Positions 8,734 through 16,485 are shown, counted from the stretch's first letter. The stretch: 64,000 nucleotides of DNA from an uncultured Chryseobacterium sp. (GCA_964649165.1 CAZYPC010000008.1:9788-73787), one strand, 5' to 3'. Numbers and translations are program-made. The notes: generated by a model not told the origin, from the sequence alone.

Positions 8734-11700
8734 CTACACGGCTCGGAGGCGCTTCCGGCGGCGCCACCAGAAGAAGCCCAGCGCGGCAACGCCGAGGAGC
8801 AAGCCGAGCTTCACCCAGATGCTGCGCATGAGGCTGCCGATCGCGTAGCCTACCCGATATGTATTGGATAGAGACTTGGGTCCAAGATCTACTAGAGTAT
8901 TGCCATAAACCTTTTCAACGTCGAGCATGTATAGGACGGCTGTTGGGGTGACAGGATAACGCTCGAACTCCCTGCGCGTTCGATGATTGGTGAGGACCAT
9001 TCCATTTCCAATGGGAGCGGCATAGCCCTGCTTCTCCAGTGCAATGGTGTTACCAACGACAATGGCGAAGCCATCTTCTGTCAGGCTGGAACGCCGGAGC
9101 AAGGCGCAGTTCTCCGCAGTGGGAATGACCTCATTGTAACGGGTATCACTGACATTGACAGTGTTCCAATAGACATCTTGATTGTCCACGCCATCCTTCC
9201 TCTGAACCAGAAGCGTTCTAACATCACGCACTTCGGCTCCTACGGAAAATACACTCATGGTGTCGGTAAGAATCCAAATCGCACTATCACGCCGACCACC
9301 TTCTGAAAGAATACTCCCAAACCCTTCGCCGAATAGACACCTTCCCCCCTCCTCTCCTTGGCGATGAGAACGGCGATGCGCATTCAACCGGGTCCGTGCA
9401 ACCTTGAGGTATGACCCTTGTTCATTCAGCGTATCTAAGAACGAGGCATTCAGAGCAAGAGCACTGATCTCCTTCAGCGAATACGACTCAGGGAACGACA
9501 CAATACCAGTCGAATCCCAGATGCCAATACCACTCGAGGAGTTGGCATATAGCACGGAGCCATCAGGAGCCAAACAAGCTTCGGTCATCGCCGCCTCGGA
9601 ACGGGGCAGTTCAATCCTCACTTGATTGGTACCATCAATCAGCCAGTAGCTATCGGACCCGTGACGATACTGGAAGCAGGCTTGCTCACCAAGTCCAAAG
9701 ACCAGATCAATTTCCCTGGGATTGAGCACATCACTGTGAAAATCGCAGCTCTGCTTCAGTCTGAAGCTGTCTTCCTGCAGTTCATACAACTTTACTCCTC
9801 GTATTGCCGCTCTCATGCCTCCAGCGCCAAGCACCGATTTCACCTTGCAAAAGACGCGGCCCCGCGATGGGTAAATGGTCAGATTGTCCATCCATTCGCG
9901 GTACCAGCCCGTAACTGCCAAGAGGTTCCGCTCCATTCTTCGCTTTTCAGGAAAGCTCGTGATGCCACCAACTAGCGCCTTGCTCAGCCCCAACCTATCT
10001 ATGCCCCCTGGTCTGGAAAGAAAGTAAGCATCGATTCCATCACCATCGGGCATAGAGCTTACCCGCGCCTTCGCCACTACTGTGTTCGAAAGACCTGGCA
10101 ATGTCTCCTTAATCTGAAGCACGCTGTCAAGGATCAAGAGCCTCGGATCATCCCTTTCCACATCAATCATGCTCAGTACAGAACAAGCTCCACCCAAGAG
10201 CTTCAGTCCATCCTTCCCAATGCTTCCCGAGAAACTCCCGGTGTGATCATGCTTACTGAAGATGATTTCGCTTGAGTTCGCGGAATAGGATTTCTTCTGA
10301 AACACCCTGACGGTCCGAAATCCTACAGGGAAATCCTTCGTTGCGGTGATCTCGTAACCCGTGCTTCCTTCCATTCCAACCAATCTGCCGTATTCAACAC
10401 CATCCATCGTGAATCCCCGATACTCAAGAAGATCCTCCCCTGGGAATACCAGAGCACGGCTCAACCTGGGTGTCCACGCAGACACTGGATCGGGTCGAAC
10501 GGTGCAATACAACTCGCCTTTGGGAACACCACTTCCAAACGAGGCGGACAGAACTCCGAGATCCGCATTCTTAACAGTGTTGCTCTCCCATTCATATACT
10601 CTCATGGAATCGGTCATGAACCGCACGCGCGAGCGTCCGAGTTGGTCATTGAAGCCAAAGAACGGCCTTTGAACTTCCTTGATCCACGCCAACTCCACAT
10701 TACGGGCGGTTCCGGGAACCTGAAGAAGTGTTTTGAAGACGAATCCAGTGTCGGACTGCACTATCTCGAACAGCCCTTCATCGTCATAGAAGCGGAACTC
10801 CCCATCCCAAGCAAGGTAGTCAACAGAGCTAACGGTTTTGACCGACCGCATAGGGTCGGGGCCAAACACATTGGGAATCGGTAGGGCCTCGCGTCGAATG
10901 ATCTTTCCTTGGTCATCGAACTGATAGAATGTAACCGAGGATTCTCCGAGCTCAAACACATGCCTCGTATCCCACAGATGCAATTCACGGACTCCCGATG
11001 AGGTCGAAAAGCTCGTGTCCGAAAGGTCGATTTTGGCGATGGTGCTTCCTGCATCAGACAAAATGAAAATCGCGCTGTCCGCCGTCAAAGTGAAATAGGG
11101 TGACCCTTCATGGGAGTGTCTGAGATCGGAAATTCGTGCTAGGGATCTGAATGGGATTTCGCGGATGACATCCCCGCGTGGTGTCATCAACCTCATTTTT
11201 CTATTCGTGGCTTGGCATACCACTAAACTGTCGGCAATCGCCTTGAGGTTACCGTTGACTACCATCGAGTCGATCGATGCCACCTGCTCAAACGCAGAAT
11301 CAAAGAACTTGACCGTATGGTCTTGTTCATTCCCGACCGCGAAGTACTGCATGGAAATCGGCCAAATCAGCATGTTGCCTTCGTACCGGGCGAGTTCATT
11401 GTACCCCAGGTCGTACGCTCCGGCGAGCGCCTTCACCGTGGTCGCATTCGAGTCCTCAAGGAATGCTTGTCGCGCGAATGCCAACCCCTTGATTGGGTCG
11501 GTTCCCAGCAAATCATCCGATCGCTGTGCCAACTCAAGGCTGTAATTCTTCCGTTGGACTCGATTCAACTCTTTCACTTTTCCGACAGTATACCAACTAG
11601 CCAGAATTCCAAATCCAAGCGCCCCGAAGGTCAGCCAACGTCTTTTACTGCGCCTGTCCCTTGCCTTCCTCTCCTCCTCCCCGAACGCCCCCTCCACAAA

Positions 11701-12909
11701 CCCCCTCACCTCCCCCTTCAAGTGCAACTGGTTCCTGTACGGCCGCAGGTAGGTGAGGTCATTCGCCGTCAGCTTCACCCCGCGCTTCAGGAATTGCCCA
11801 TGGGCCTGCTGCACGAATTGCCGCACCTCGATCAACTCTTGCTCTGCACGTGTGATGCGCTGGAAGATCTGCCGGGCGAGCGCGTCGTGGAGTAGTTCGT
11901 AACGCCCGCGTTCATCGCGTTCCTTCAGCAGGCGTTTGGTCACGAAGACCTGCAGCAGCCGTTCCACATCGGCGAGATCCATCGTGGTGCCGATGGTGTT
12001 CACCCATTCATGCGCTTCAGCAGAAGTCAGTTGCCGCTTGGTGCCTTGGTCACTCACGAACGTCTTCAGCAGTGCTTCGGCGCGTTGGGGTTCTGATGTA
12101 TCGGCGACCTGTTCATCCAGGAAGGCGCCGAGCAGGTCATCGACATGGCCTATCCGCTCCAACAGCGCGGGAGAGAAGGGCTCGTCGCCTTGGCGTGTAC
12201 GCCAGCAACGGTCGAGGAAAACCTGCAGGTAGCTGAGTTCGATGCCGTGACTTTCTGGATCGAGGCGCTCAACCAGGGCAGAGGCGAAGCCCTCGGTGCA
12301 GGTGATGCCATGTGCGCCGCATAGCTGTTGCACCACGTTCATCGCGTGGTGGTGGCTGAGCCGTTCCACGCGGTTGCGGTTCTCGATCAGCCCGGGGATG
12401 ACCCGCTCATAGCGCGTGAGTTCCGCGAGGTATTCCTCGCGCACGATGAAGATGCAGCGGGCATTCCGCTCCCCTTCGACCAGTCGTGCGATCGCCGTGA
12501 AGAAGTCCTCGGCTTCGCTGTGTGTGCCGAAGATGAAAAGCTCCTCGAACTGATCGAAGAGGAACCAGATGGGCTTGAAGTGGTCGAGGTAGAGGTTGGT
12601 GACGAGCTCGGCGAGGTCGCCTGTGCTCTTGGGTGTGAGGGTGTGCTCACGCACGGCCTCGGTGAGCGAGGAGAGCATGTCACCGGAGCGGCGCACGGGC
12701 ACGGGCAGCCAGTCGCTCTCCTGGAAGCGCGAGGCGAGGCCGCATTGCACGAGACTGGTCTTGCCGGTACCTGATCCGCCGTAAACGATGAGGATGTTGG
12801 AGAGGAAGCAGCGGCGGAAGAGCTCATCCGTTTCCTTCTCGCGCCCGAAGTAGGAGCCGATGTCGGCGCGGGTATAGCTGTCGAGGAACTTGAAGGGGGA
12901 GGCGCTCAT
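8734..12909 (-). CDS. STAND-class P-loop NTPase with two predicted TM helices bracketing a ~920-aa beta-rich region
   Basis: 1391 aa. The N-terminus reads FKFLDSYTRADIGSYFGREKETDELF...VYGGSGTGKTS (Walker A, nt 12754..12780). Walker B is IWFLFDQFEELF, the pattern seen in bacterial NACHT/nSTAND-type NTPases. Predicted TM1 is WLTFGALGFGILASWYTVG (about nt 11581..11637). Predicted TM2 is VKLGLLLGVAALGFFWW followed by RRRKRLRAV (about nt 8764..8814). Confidence 0.8.
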   Translation of the reverse strand: MSASPFKFLDSYTRADIGSYFGREKETDELFRRCFLSNILIVYGGSGTGKTSLVQCGLASRFQESDWLPVPVRRSGDMLSSLTEAVREHTLTPKSTGDLAELVTNLYLDHFKPIWFLFDQFEELFIFGTHSEAEDFFTAIARLVEGERNARCIFIVREEYLAELTRYERVIPGLIENRNRVERLSHHHAMNVVQQLCGAHGITCTEGFASALVERLDPESHGIELSYLQVFLDRCWRTRQGDEPFSPALLERIGHVDDLLGAFLDEQVADTSEPQRAEALLKTFVSDQGTKRQLTSAEAHEWVNTIGTTMDLADVERLLQVFVTKRLLKERDERGRYELLHDALARQIFQRITRAEQELIEVRQFVQQAHGQFLKRGVKLTANDLTYLRPYRNQLHLKGEVRGFVEGAFGEEERKARDRRSKRRWLTFGALGFGILASWYTVGKVKELNRVQRKNYSLELAQRSDDLLGTDPIKGLAFARQAFLEDSNATTVKALAGAYDLGYNELARYEGNMLIWPISMQYFAVGNEQDHTVKFFDSAFEQVASIDSMVVNGNLKAIADSLVVCQATNRKMRLMTPRGDVIREIPFRSLARISDLRHSHEGSPYFTLTADSAIFILSDAGSTIAKIDLSDTSFSTSSGVRELHLWDTRHVFELGESSVTFYQFDDQGKIIRREALPIPNVFGPDPMRSVKTVSSVDYLAWDGEFRFYDDEGLFEIVQSDTGFVFKTLLQVPGTARNVELAWIKEVQRPFFGFNDQLGRSRVRFMTDSMRVYEWESNTVKNADLGVLSASFGSGVPKGELYCTVRPDPVSAWTPRLSRALVFPGEDLLEYRGFTMDGVEYGRLVGMEGSTGYEITATKDFPVGFRTVRVFQKKSYSANSSEIIFSKHDHTGSFSGSIGKDGLKLLGGACSVLSMIDVERDDPRLLILDSVLQIKETLPGLSNTVVAKARVSSMPDGDGIDAYFLSRPGGIDRLGLSKALVGGITSFPEKRRMERNLLAVTGWYREWMDNLTIYPSRGRVFCKVKSVLGAGGMRAAIRGVKLYELQEDSFRLKQSCDFHSDVLNPREIDLVFGLGEQACFQYRHGSDSYWLIDGTNQVRIELPRSEAAMTEACLAPDGSVLYANSSSGIGIWDSTGIVSFPESYSLKEISALALNASFLDTLNEQGSYLKVARTRLNAHRRSHRQGEEGGRCLFGEGFGSILSEGGRRDSAIWILTDTMSVFSVGAEVRDVRTLLVQRKDGVDNQDVYWNTVNVSDTRYNEVIPTAENCALLRRSSLTEDGFAIVVGNTIALEKQGYAAPIGNGMVLTNHRTRREFERYPVTPTAVLYMLDVEKVYGNTLVDLGPKSLSNTYRVGYAIGSLMRSIWVKLGLLLGVAALGFFWWRRRKRLRAV

Positions 12910-12926
12910 GATCGCTCAACTGCGAT

Positions 12927-13083
12927 GATCAAAAACAACAATGCGTCCCGGAAGCCCGGCGACGCGCAGCGTCGGGAACCGGGCTGTCCGGGACCTCACC
13001 CGATACTGCGTGGCATCATCGGGTGAGGTCCCGGACAGCCGGGGCCCCGGCCGCCTTGGGGCGGCCGCCCGGCTTCCGGGACG
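12927..13083 (-). terminator. compound hairpin followed by a U-rich tract (terminator or attenuator-like) between two co-oriented genes
   Basis: There is a perfect 23-bp inner stem (12982..13004 with 13018..13040, 13-nt loop). A 13-bp outer stem pairs 12944..12956 with 13071..13083, and a small GC hairpin ggccgcc-ttgg-ggcggcc lies between. On the minus-strand RNA the structure is followed by CAUUGUUGUUUUUGAUC. The ATG of the STAND gene lies 34 nt downstream of the outer stem. Confidence 0.6.
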
Positions 13084-13126
13084 GCTCAGTGGAATTATTG
13101 GCAGTAGCATCATGCAGTAGCCTCGA

Positions 13127-14203
13127 TCAGTTCTGCCCGGGTCCGGTGATCGCCAGCATCATATCGCGGTATTCTTCCAGGAGATCAGCGTAGTTGCCGA
13201 GGGCGCGCAGGTCGCACTTCTCGGTGGCCTCGGTGCCGGCGTACATCAGGTGATCGCCCTTGATCTTGGTGTACAGGAAAATGTCCTTGCGGATCTCCAG
13301 CTTTTCCTTCGCATCGATGGCCTCGCTGTGCGTGTCGATGATGAGCGGCGAGAGGTTGAGGTACTCGTCGATGGCCTTCAGGTTGCGCAGCAGGAGCACG
13401 GCGTGGCTCTCGGTGAAGCGGATGCCGTCCACGTCGCTGGCCTTGAAATCGGAATCGGAGCTGTTGAGCAGGTCGATGCGATGGTGGAAGACGGCGTCCT
13501 TGAAGCGCGGTTTGTGAACCTGGATCTCGCGCACGCTCACGAGCCTGTACTTGCAGAGGAAGGCGAGGGCGGAGAGCAGGTCGCCGAGACGGTCGGTGCA
13601 TTCCACGCAGCGGCGCTCGATCTCCTCCTGGTTGAGGTTGATCTGGTAGTGGCCGATCTCGTTGCGCTCGGGCACCCAGAGGTCGAGGCTCGCGTAGAAC
13701 TTGTTGTTGAGCACCTCCTTCAATTCGGGGAGGAAAAGGTTGACCTCGGGCGCGGCCATCACCTTGCCGAGTTCGCGCACGAGCCAGGTGAGGTTACCGA
13801 GGGTGATCTGCTCGAAGCGCCGCTCGAACTCCTGGATAAAGGCTGGGGAGAGCTGGAGGGTGCCGGCCTTGCGCTCCTTCCACGCTTGGGCGAGCATGAC
13901 GAAGGCGAGGAACTGCAGCGAGCGCTCGATGGTCTTGAAGAGCTGGTCCAGCCGGTGGCGGTCGGCGTTGCGCATGCCGCCGGAGAAGAGGCGCCGCAGC
14001 TCCACGCCGATGGGCCAGGGGAAATTGCGGACGATCTGGTCGGCGAGCAGCCGACGGTCCACCTCCTGACCATCCTCTTCGCCCATGGCCAGCACGGCGG
14101 CAAGGGAGGGCTTGTGCGCGACCATCGCATGGAACACGCGTTCCACGACGGTATCGTTGGCGGTGGTGGGGCGCATTGTGTCGAAGGTAGCATTTCCGCG
14201 CAC
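13127..14203 (-). CDS. hypothetical protein with two RNxxxH (HEPN-type Rx4H) motifs; candidate HEPN-like RNase
   Basis: 358-aa ORF with a GTG at 14203 and an alternative ATG at 14176. I recognise no family. The N-terminal half looks helical and contains RNADRH (nt 13955..13972) and RNEIGH (nt 13649..13666). The C-terminal half appears beta-rich. It sits directly upstream of the STAND NTPase on the same strand. Confidence 0.6.
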   Translation of the reverse strand: MRGNATFDTMRPTTANDTVVERVFHAMVAHKPSLAAVLAMGEEDGQEVDRRLLADQIVRNFPWPIGVELRRLFSGGMRNADRHRLDQLFKTIERSLQFLAFVMLAQAWKERKAGTLQLSPAFIQEFERRFEQITLGNLTWLVRELGKVMAAPEVNLFLPELKEVLNNKFYASLDLWVPERNEIGHYQINLNQEEIERRCVECTDRLGDLLSALAFLCKYRLVSVREIQVHKPRFKDAVFHHRIDLLNSSDSDFKASDVDGIRFTESHAVLLLRNLKAIDEYLNLSPLIIDTHSEAIDAKEKLEIRKDIFLYTKIKGDHLMYAGTEATEKCDLRALGNYADLLEEYRDMMLAITGPGQN

Positions 14204-14232
14204 CGCCGCAAGAGGCAGGGAACAGGGCTATT

Positions 14233-14922
14233 TTGGCGACCATGCCGAAGCAGGAAACATCCCGCAAGCCCGCGCCGTCCGAAGCGGTGGAATGCAGCTT
14301 GATGCTCATCGATGTGAGCGGTTTCACTCAGCTCCTGTACCACTCGAGCTATAAGGAAGAAGTGATGCGCGTGGTCGCTCTGGCCATGAAGCGTTTTTTC
14401 CAGGACGCCGCCGATACCGCGAAGGAGACGCGCGATGTGGAGGTGATCAATACGACCGGTGACGGCTTCATCGCGATCGCCACAGGGGCCACGCCATCAC
14501 GCACAGCGGTACGATTCTGCCAGGGCATCCGTGCGCATTTCGACGAAAAGGTGAAGGCGATGATCCATTCCGTACCGTTCCGCCAACGCGTGGACCTGCG
14601 CATCGCCCTGCACCACGGCACGGTACACCGCATCGCGATCACCGGGCTCACCGCCGGCGATCATCCGGTCTACATCGGCGATGACATCAACCTGATCGCG
14701 CGGGTGATCAACAGCCAGGTCGCCCGGCGGTATGGCATCGCGGTCACGCGCGCCTTCTACCGCCGGCTCACCATGACGAAGGGTGATGCGCCGATGGCCG
14801 ACGAGGTGATCCTGGACCGCAACCGCTATCCCGAGCAGATCGAGATCTACAAGCTGCCCACCGACATTCCGGACATGGCTGTGAAGAAGCGGCCTCATCC
14901 CGACCCGTCGGCGAAGCGCTGA
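14233..14922 (+). CDS. stand-alone class III nucleotidyl cyclase homology domain protein
   Basis: 229-aa ORF with a TTG at 14233 and an ATG at 14242. The cyclase motifs appear in the expected order: LMLIDVSGFTQL (metal Asp), TTGDGFIAI (second Asp), RIALHHGTV, and YIGDDINLIARV (Asn/Arg pair). There is no sensor or TM domain. Confidence 0.75.
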   Translation: MATMPKQETSRKPAPSEAVECSLMLIDVSGFTQLLYHSSYKEEVMRVVALAMKRFFQDAADTAKETRDVEVINTTGDGFIAIATGATPSRTAVRFCQGIRAHFDEKVKAMIHSVPFRQRVDLRIALHHGTVHRIAITGLTAGDHPVYIGDDINLIARVINSQVARRYGIAVTRAFYRRLTMTKGDAPMADEVILDRNRYPEQIEIYKLPTDIPDMAVKKRPHPDPSAKR

Positions 14923-15030
14923 CCTGTCGCACCTACGGCTGGTGTATTCTGGCATGGACGCTTGCCGGAAAGCAGGGCGAGGGGGGTACTTTCGCAGCGG
15001 ACTTCGCGCAGAACGATCGCCGCCCGTACC

Positions 15031-16485
15031 ATGCTCAAACAGAACCTGTCCTTCAAGCTTCAGCAGAAGCTCAGCCCCCAGCAGATCCAGCTGATGAAGA
15101 TGCTGCAACTGCCCACCATGGAAATGGAGCAGCGCATCAAGGACGAAATGGCCGAGAACCCCGCGCTGGAAGAAGGAGAAGAAGGCGACCAGGACGAGCA
15201 GGATGAGGAAGCGGTGGAGCAGATGGATTCCGAGGAGAGCGAGAAGGATGACGATCGCGACGACATCGACCTGAGCGACTACTACGATGACGACACGCCG
15301 GACTACAAGCTGCAGGTGAACAACAAGGGGCGCGACGAGGAGGAGCGCGAGACGCCCCTGGCCGGCGGCAACACCTTCCAGGACAACCTGCGTTCGCAAC
15401 TCGCGCTGCGCGACATCGATGAGCGCACCGAGCTGCTGGGCGAACACCTGATCGGCAACCTGGACGAGGACGGATACCTGCGCCGGGAGCTCGACGCCAT
15501 CGTGAACGACCTCGCCTTCACGGCGAACATCATGACCACGAAGGAGGAGCTGGAGAAGGCGCTGAAGGAGGTGCAGGCCCTGGACCCGGTCGGCACGGGC
15601 GCCCGCGACCTGCGCGAATGCCTGCTGCTCCAACTGGAGCGCATGCCGCACGCCGTGGACACGCTCACCGCCAAGGCCATCGTGGACAAGCATTTCGACG
15701 CGTTCACCAAGAAGCACTATGACAAGATCATGGAGCGGCTGGAGATCGATGAAGAGGCGCTGCGCGCGGCTGTGGAGGAGATCATGCGCTTGAACCCGAA
15801 GCCCGGCAACACCGACCGCGCTACGGACAAACCGATCCAGGAGATCGTTCCCGACTTCATCATCAATACCATCGACGGGCAGCTGGAGCTGCAACTGAAC
15901 AGCCGCAACGCTCCCGAATTGCGCGTGAGCAGGCAGTACCGCGACATGATCGCCGAGTACCAGCGCAACAAGAAAGACCCAGCCGCCAAAGATGCGCTCG
16001 TCTTCATCAAGCAGAAACTCGACAGCGCCAAGTGGTTCATCGATGCCATCAAGCAGCGTCAGCATACCCTGCTCGTAACGATGGAGGCCATCATGGAGCA
16101 TCAGCGTGATTTCTTCCTCACCGGTGACGAGACGAAGCTGAAGCCGATGATCCTGAAGGACATCGCCGAGAAAGTGGGCATGGACATCAGCACGATCAGC
16201 CGCGTGGCGAACAGCAAGTACGTGCAGACCAACTACGGCACCATCCTGTTGAAGTTCTTCTTCAGTGAGAGCCTGACGAACCAGGAAGGCGAAGAAGTGA
16301 GCACGCGCGAGGTGAAGAAGATCCTGAAGGATGCCATCGAAGCGGAGGCGAAGAAGAACCCGCTCACCGATGAGGAGCTAACCGACCTGCTGAAGAGCAA
16401 AGGCTACAACATCGCCCGGCGCACCGTGGCGAAGTACCGGGAGCAGCTGAACATCCCGGTGGCCCGTCTGCGGAAGGAACTTTGA
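15031..16485 (+). CDS. rpoN: RNA polymerase sigma-54 factor
   Basis: The start MLKQNLSFKLQQKLSPQQIQLMKMLQLP is the conserved region I. An acidic linker follows, and the C-terminal RpoN box is ARRTVAKYREQLNIP. I trimmed the ORF-track start from 14962 to the ATG at 15031. Confidence 0.95.
   Translation: MLKQNLSFKLQQKLSPQQIQLMKMLQLPTMEMEQRIKDEMAENPALEEGEEGDQDEQDEEAVEQMDSEESEKDDDRDDIDLSDYYDDDTPDYKLQVNNKGRDEEERETPLAGGNTFQDNLRSQLALRDIDERTELLGEHLIGNLDEDGYLRRELDAIVNDLAFTANIMTTKEELEKALKEVQALDPVGTGARDLRECLLLQLERMPHAVDTLTAKAIVDKHFDAFTKKHYDKIMERLEIDEEALRAAVEEIMRLNPKPGNTDRATDKPIQEIVPDFIINTIDGQLELQLNSRNAPELRVSRQYRDMIAEYQRNKKDPAAKDALVFIKQKLDSAKWFIDAIKQRQHTLLVTMEAIMEHQRDFFLTGDETKLKPMILKDIAEKVGMDISTISRVANSKYVQTNYGTILLKFFFSESLTNQEGEEVSTREVKKILKDAIEAEAKKNPLTDEELTDLLKSKGYNIARRTVAKYREQLNIPVARLRKEL

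Follow-up and report, generated by a model that had tools for sequence, protein, structure and literature searches.

HEPN ribonucleases (RNases) generally need two domains to form an active cleft. In Ire1 and RNase L a sensor, which lies across the membrane in Ire1, drives nucleotide-dependent self-association, by which HEPN domains are juxtaposed and RNA is cleaved. The KEN domain of these two enzymes has been classified as HEPN, and HEPN domains have been described by a conserved Rx4-6H motif, whose arginine is followed by a polar residue (N, D or H), and by a second conserved acidic residue, which lies upstream in a helix, typically as Ex3[K/R], and is part of the active site (PMC3710099). 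Among the nucleoside triphosphatases (NTPases) of the STAND type, nSTAND1 owes its name to Kaur et al. 2021 (PMC8195603), and related conflict systems were described in Kaur et al. 2020 (PMC7159879). Here we analyse a gene that appears to bring both protein classes together. It lies in a 64,000-nt stretch of DNA from an uncultured Chryseobacterium sp. (GCA_964649165.1, CAZYPC010000008.1:9788-73787; “the window”, to which all coordinates refer), and its product (the target) belongs to a family of single-HEPN-like proteins that we call the module. On balance, this family is probably the dedicated partner of membrane-spanning nSTAND1 NTPases and serves as the trans-encoded HEPN RNase effector, or the output adaptor, of an NLR-like receptor. 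The features of the locus are collected in Table 1.

A preliminary description of the open reading frame (ORF) had presented it as an orphan with two RNxxxH strings about 100 residues apart in a helical half, followed by a beta-rich C-terminal half. The descriptive part of this account was borne out: the ORF of 358 aa and both strings were recovered, the spacing measures 102 residues, and AlphaFold2 (AF2) modelling agrees with a helical half that contains both strings and with a beta-rich second half. Homologues, with few exceptions, have their first residue at the position equivalent to M10; the true start is therefore probably the ATG at 14176, which gives a protein of 349 aa. The target is no orphan. 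A search of 5.8 billion proteins returned 1089 homologous 90%-identity clusters, and 862 matches at E <= 0.001 came from a profile search that covered 1.84 billion 50%-identity representatives exhaustively. The homologue clusters (~345-350 aa, mostly 55-58% identical to the target) come from metagenome-assembled genomes (MAGs) of Bacteroidota, are unnamed and carry no Pfam domain; direct scans of the target against Pfam, NCBIfam and PADLOC gave no match, and a limited literature search found no description of the module. In a set of one genome per species (~185,000 species) we found 213 loci, all in MAGs, and several MAGs hold two or three module copies, so that a patchy distribution goes together with multiple copies. 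The typical order of module, NTPase and third gene (see below) is also seen at one locus (L039, JBLNAO010000168.1) in a MAG labelled Chloroflexota, all others being Bacteroidota; this label could reflect binning contamination or horizontal transfer. Distant relatives carry the module behind N-terminal extensions, namely an AraC-type helix-turn-helix (HTH), an HTH plus a class-III cyclase, or a CHAT protease.

Conservation singles out the second string, RNEIGH. In an alignment of 34 family members the stretch E179-R180-N181-x-x-G184-H185-Y186-Q187 is invariant. At the first string, RNADRH, the arginines R78 and R82 are invariant in the same 34 members, N79 is variable, and 32 of the members have M, L, R, G or S in place of H83, which only the two closest sequences retain. 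Within the Bacteroidota family R78 and R82 are kept, and R84 beside them is ~100% conserved in every architecture; H83 and N79 are conserved in no subfamily. When 46 standalone homologues down to 23% identity are aligned, E93, R180, N181 and H185 are the only invariant columns. A homologue alignment had been proposed as a check on the invariance of both R/H pairs; it upholds R180 and H185, retains R78 in the 34 members and discards H83, so that RNEIGH survives as one HEPN motif and RNADRH falls. Composition alone is a poor guide here. In so Arg-rich a protein (29 Arg and 10 His) the generic Rx4-6H pattern tells nothing (5 occurrences, 2.4 expected by chance); RNxxxH is expected 0.038 times, two or more copies arise in 0.06% of shuffles (P = 0.0006), and judged on one sequence alone the pair looks meaningful.

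The four site residues are also lost together. Among 150 representatives aligned to the family hidden Markov model, the full R-N-x3-H is present in 35 of the 44 standalone forms, each of which also has E93 (itself present in 40), and in none of the 72 forms that are extended N-terminally with CHAT, HTH or cyclase, 12 of which have E93; all four residues together are thus found in 35/44 standalone and 0/72 fused forms. P62, R84 and P286 are ~100% conserved in every class, the fused forms included. By these counts E93, R180, N181 and H185 behave as one functional unit, dispensable once another output domain has been attached, and this pattern of loss is what would be expected if the site were itself an enzymatic output. 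If so, a separate and constant role would fall to the remainder of the module. The FPWPIGVELRRLFS block is a candidate for a constant surface or core. The loss pattern already marks residues for mutation.

A second body of evidence comes from gene order. Among the 75 related loci with enough downstream DNA, at least 60 have the start of an nSTAND1 ORF <=700 nt downstream of the module gene (median gap 32 nt); tblastn adds two pairings missed by the ORF caller, and most of the remaining loci have nSTAND1 within 5 kb. Every other architecture examined shows the same pairing. In the CHAT plus module loci (L083, L084) the two genes overlap by 4 nt, in the HTH plus cyclase plus module locus (L085) the module abuts nSTAND1, in the two most divergent standalone subfamilies (L086-L088; L089/L090) nSTAND1 overlaps or abuts, and in one representative the C-terminal half of the module and nSTAND1 lie within a single ORF. 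Tandem arrays also occur, with two nSTAND1 paralogues after one module gene (L031, L054, L059, L082) or two tandem module genes followed by one NTPase (L016, L025), which suggests that effectors are shared among several sensors.

The NTPase partner in the window matches nSTAND1 (PF20703, E = 1.3e-37; NTPase domain at nt 11785-12897) with intact Walker A (GGSGTGKT, nt 12757-12780) and Walker B (FLFDQFEE) motifs. Its nSTAND1 domain begins at residue 5, and no domain lies N-terminal to it. Searches found no match to EAD, EACC1 or Pepco; EACC1, a single-transmembrane domain, and Pepco, a 117-aa beta-barrel former, were both rejected as identities for the module. Right after the NTPase domain, at ~residues 425-480, a strong hydrophobic helix is present in 53 of the 55 partner ORFs of >=600 aa that were scanned for a transmembrane (TM) helix. 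In the partner of the most divergent subfamily this helix has a hydropathy of 2.91 and is followed by WD40 propellers. The window partner has a weaker predicted TM helix at residues 425-443 (nt 11581-11637), preceded by RRSKRR, and a second predicted TM helix at its C-terminal end (residues 1363-1381, nt 8767-8823). Because the NTPase must be cytoplasmic, we infer that the variable region beyond the helix faces the periplasm. Conservation falls steeply along the pair: all pairs of modules are alignable at a median pairwise identity of 66% and all pairs of NTPase domains at 55%, and only 37% of pairs are alignable in the outer variable region, with a median identity of 27.5%. WD40 or beta-propeller matches occur in many partners. 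The ~920 aa between the TM helices of the window partner (residues ~445-1360) have no Pfam match; tblastn matches to this region occur only in a few of the loci closest to it (L003, L004, L032 and L067) and are mostly short and ~30% identical.

Two further observations concern the NTPase genes. In 21 loci a third gene of ~360 aa directly follows an NTPase of the ~966-aa class (L002 12042-13169, L010 9935-11080, L085 11905-12987 and 18 other loci); its product has a signal peptide and a weak match to the outer-membrane beta-barrel PF13568. This gene is absent from the window, whose NTPase is of 1391 aa. Some contigs from long-read metagenomes show the partner NTPase broken up into several short ORFs (L002/L071 9043-10523; L085 9070-11951), which are either frameshift assembly errors or pseudogenes.

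The assignment of the helical domain to HEPN is likely but not proven. An AF2 model of residues 44-222, built on a more diverse alignment, is a single compact domain (predicted local distance difference test, pLDDT, 93.6; predicted template modelling score, pTM, 0.89). In this model R180 and N181 sit in a short helix (176-184) with H185 at its end, followed by a loop and a long helix (192-212). The predicted placement of the motif, at a helix end before the loop to the last long helix, and the polar residue after the arginine match the published HEPN description; a conserved Rx4-6H with such a residue is found at RNEIGH and not at RNADRH, and E93 appears to correspond to the second conserved acidic residue. 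The only recurrent Pfam matches in 45 diverse members are to HEPN models, all below threshold (RiboL-PSP 4, Swt1 3, Apea 1, Csm6_HEPN 1, MAE_28990 1). Subfamily consensus sequences come closer. The A4 consensus matches HEPN_RiboL-PSP at the gathering score (28.4 bits, E = 1.9e-6) and also matches Swt1, Apea and DUF4145; the g5 consensus matches a HepT-like model with E = 5e-5 and 23.4 bits (cut-off 23.5); the A2 and A3 consensuses match Swt1 at ~0.015. Taken together the profile evidence appears consistent but borderline. The HEPN idea of the preliminary description accordingly narrows to RNEIGH, with an invariant E93 and recurrent weak HEPN-clan matches beside it, and is given up for RNADRH. 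In the full-length AF2 model (pLDDT 77.6, pTM 0.82) the helical half spans residues 15-218, the beta-rich part 219-320, and a terminal helix follows. The C-terminal domain is modelled with strands at 219-320 and a helix at 338-353 (pLDDT 47-82), and in Foldseek it has weak OB-like local matches only (uS12, SSB, DUF669); it might bind a ligand, as the preliminary description suggested.

From these results the following mechanism can be proposed. The target would be a cytoplasmic two-domain protein, with a divergent HEPN domain that bears a single RNase-type site (E93, R180, N181, H185) and a beta-rich C-terminal domain, and would be the constant, separately encoded partner of one clade of nSTAND1 NTPases. 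These NTPases would be anchored in the inner membrane by the helix after the NTPase domain and would expose a hypervariable region, often a beta-propeller, on the other side. A signal outside the cytoplasm would be sensed by the variable region, and the cytoplasmic nSTAND1 domain would oligomerise in an NTP-dependent manner. The NTPase would then recruit and cluster the module through the module's constant parts (the PWPIG-ELRRLFS block, R84 and LNLSPLIIDT), and RNA would be cleaved at a composite active site formed between juxtaposed HEPN domains. The cell might respond with growth arrest, with abortive infection or with regulated processing of RNA. In relatives, whose RNase site has decayed, the same scaffold would serve another output, be it a CHAT protease, an AraC HTH or a cyclase. 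In its widest form the proposal is tentative: it is possible, though rather doubtful, that we are dealing with a previously unrecognised trans-membrane NLR-like pathway, in which an extracytoplasmic propeller sensor acts through nSTAND1 oligomerisation on a scaffold with interchangeable HEPN, CHAT, AraC or cyclase outputs, in which some loci may span the whole envelope by means of the third gene, and whose HEPN form is a functional analogue of Ire1 and RNase L.

A number of results weigh against this proposal. On the side of the HEPN assignment, the motif loop has a pLDDT < 50 in the full-length model, and E93 stands in the context E-R-x-x-Q, not in the typical Ex3[K/R]. No natural sequence passes any Pfam HEPN gathering score (best E = 1.5e-4), and the consensus matches given above are a mere stand-in for a true profile-profile comparison. 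Structure prediction followed by a Foldseek comparison with HEPN structures, which had been put forward as a check, yielded no significant match to any HEPN structure in the PDB (best E-value 1.1). The highest target-normalised TM-scores and the lowest root-mean-square deviations of the domain model are with the HepT/SO_3166 toxins (7bxo 0.45, 5yep 0.41), with E ~5 and not significant. Foldseek gave nothing at E <= 0.001 for the full-length and domain models against the PDB or for the full-length model against BFVD. No relative came up when the PDB was searched by sequence with the A1, A3 and A4 profiles, the sole match, AlaRS at E = 0.56, being due to chance, and a word-indexed profile search meant to bridge a divergent subfamily to Pfam-annotated HEPN proteins gave only 3 matches. 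The HEPN fold assignment therefore rests on sequence-profile and motif evidence, because no structural match is significant. On the side of mechanism and role, the degree of conservation in the family is unusual for an effector of a conflict system; the window context is one of housekeeping genes (rpoN, MBOAT, GDSL lipases, SLT-LysM, PhoD, fucosidase); the AraC-HTH outputs suggest signalling and not suicide defence; and tblastn against phage and plasmid collections found no module copy, so that a phage or plasmid link was rejected.

Several of these points would fit envelope or nutrient signal transduction, with a logic like that of the hybrid sensor regulators of Bacteroidota, in place of an anti-phage or conflict role; the HEPN form would then regulate specific transcripts. 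Propeller-type sensors that face the periplasm behind a TM helix, AraC-HTH and cyclase outputs in relatives, the outer-membrane-type third gene in 21 loci, the housekeeping surroundings, the high conservation of the module and the lack of a PADLOC match for either module or NTPase all point this way. Patchiness (213 loci in ~185,000 species genomes, with MAGs that hold more than one copy), hypervariable sensors, and CHAT and HEPN outputs typical of the conflict systems described for nSTAND1 argue against it, and we judge this role to be possible if unlikely. Being a matter of biological role, it does not conflict with the molecular mechanism proposed above.

The module might also be a non-catalytic adaptor or regulator that couples nSTAND1 to its outputs, with the E/RN/H site binding a ligand (a nucleotide, for example, or the end of an RNA) without cleavage. 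Forms that lack the site indeed keep the scaffold fully conserved and remain paired with nSTAND1; non-catalytic HEPN domains are known as binding domains (PMC3710099); and significant structural HEPN matches are missing. However, R-N-x3-H together with an acidic residue is the RNase signature of active HEPN families (PMC3710099), and the site is lost precisely where another enzymatic or DNA-binding output has been fused, as expected of an output. A purely binding role is in our view improbable, and a catalytic site remains the preferred interpretation.

The divergently transcribed cyclase next to the target invites comparison with Pycsar, in that its cyclic nucleotide could bind the beta-rich C-terminal domain and activate HEPN. 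The cyclase matches PF00211 (E = 2e-10) and, weakly, the PADLOC model PycC (E = 4e-7), it lies only ~60 nt from the probable start of the target, it adjoins the gene pair in L004 as well, and relatives have cyclase domains fused to the module. Against such a pair, no other locus examined has the cyclase, not even L005 at 78% identity, the cyclase shares only 23% identity with the fused cyclase domains, the target has no cyclic nucleotide monophosphate (cNMP)-binding domain according to Pfam and Foldseek, and the conserved partner is the NTPase. We regard a Pycsar-like pair as very improbable. The cyclase was also dismissed as a core component on its restriction to the window and L004 and on the 23% identity, and it may be a lineage-specific accessory.

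The tandem-HEPN RNase of the preliminary description, with two HEPN domains that each carry RNxxxH and form an intramolecular composite site as in Cas13, could appeal to the compositional rarity of the two strings and to their location in helical regions, but it appears effectively refuted by the alignments, in which the His and Asn of the first string are conserved neither in the close family nor in any subfamily and only one set of invariant catalytic-type residues exists, and by the domain model, in which residues 44-222 form one unit.

Table 1. Features of the module-NTPase locus, with positions in the window.
Feature	Position	Strand	Remarks
Target ORF	13127..14203	minus	358 aa from GTG at 14203
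RNADRH, first motif, residues 78-83	13955..13972	minus	not conserved as HEPN motif
RNEIGH, R180-N181-E-I-G-H185, predicted RNase active-site motif	13649..13666	minus	conserved
E93, invariant upstream acidic residue in long helix	13925..13927	minus	alignment of 46 standalone homologues
FPWPIGVELRRLFS block, residues 61-74	13982..14023	minus	conserved in every architecture
All-alpha HEPN-like domain, residues 44-222	13538..14074	minus	domain-only AF2 model and weak HEPN Pfam matches
C-terminal beta-rich domain and terminal helix, residues 219-353	13145..13549	minus	AF2; includes conserved LNLSPLIIDT block
Partner nSTAND1 NTPase, 1391 aa	8734..12909	minus	immediately downstream of target, same strand
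Spacer between target and NTPase gene, 217 nt	12910..13126	minus	nested hairpin, then U-rich run
Class-III nucleotidyl cyclase, 229 aa	14233..14922	plus	divergent from target, PF00211

The spacer between target and NTPase gene folds into a very stable hairpin with a minimum free energy of -141 kcal/mol (z = -11.4). It is also found in L003 (1095-1309; a 96%-identical relative), with one compensatory pair change from G-C to A-T, and is absent in L004; most relatives have only ~32 nt at this position, and 3 unlinked metagenome contigs carry the core palindrome, one of them in two copies. The spacer is a lineage-specific insertion. It looks like a repetitive extragenic palindromic (REP)- or miniature inverted-repeat transposable element (MITE)-like insertion, or like a terminator or attenuator between the two genes. 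Rfam matches on it were set aside as generic hairpin matches far below gathering scores. Long antisense ORFs are present opposite the target (350 aa, 13250-14302, plus strand) and opposite rpoN (534 aa, 14497-16101, minus strand); they appear to be shadow ORFs of a high-GC coding strand and not genes. Several large “conserved” ORF clusters near the target across loci likewise proved to be antisense shadows of target and NTPase.

The module family, with more than 1,000 90%-identity clusters in Bacteroidota and its fused relatives, has no Pfam, NCBIfam or PADLOC model. If the proposal is true, the module would be a new HEPN family, and its partners would form a class of STAND/NLR-like receptors with an extracytoplasmic sensor and a separate, swappable scaffold effector. 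NLR-like immunity or signalling in bacteria would then extend from the cytoplasmic sensing of phage proteins to the envelope, and the fused relatives would offer a natural experiment in the swapping of outputs (RNase, protease, transcription factor, cyclase) on one scaffold.

Compared with known HEPN RNases (Swt1-like, RiboL-PSP, Apea, HepT), the target appears alike in its all-alpha domain, its R-N-x3-H with an upstream acidic residue, and the predicted position of the motif at a helix end. It differs in the larger size of this domain (~180 aa), in an extra N-terminal PWPIG-ELRRLFS element and in the fused beta-rich C-terminal domain. Unlike HepT-MntA, the target has no MNT antitoxin gene beside it, its neighbours being the nSTAND1 NTPase and the cyclase. 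With Cas13 and other tandem-HEPN effectors it shares the type of RNxxxH motif, but Cas13 has two conserved HEPN domains per chain and the target one conserved site. Pycsar joins PycC and a cNMP-binding effector in one operon, whereas here the cyclase is divergent and the target lacks a cNMP-binding domain. Parallels also exist with Avs, bNACHT and the nSTAND1 conflict systems, which have in common with the present pairs a STAND NTPase with intact Walker motifs (nSTAND1 as in Kaur et al.), a hypervariable C-terminal sensor, effectors of the HEPN and CHAT types, and a patchy, multi-copy distribution. In these STAND/NLR-like systems the effector is fused N-terminally or coupled through EAD; here it is a separate, highly conserved upstream gene, a TM helix separates sensor from NTPase, and the outputs include AraC HTH and cyclase. 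The module-NTPase pair is not recognised by PADLOC, and in a 2026 survey of defence STANDs the text searched makes no mention of the arrangement. A further functional parallel would be Ire1 and RNase L. A kinase or pseudokinase takes the place there of the STAND P-loop NTPase, the HEPN domain of the module is on a separate polypeptide, and the module has no sequence relationship to them beyond the superfamily. By analogy, the same logic, in which a sensor drives nucleotide-dependent self-association and HEPN domains are brought together to cleave RNA, would hold for the module and its nSTAND1 partner.

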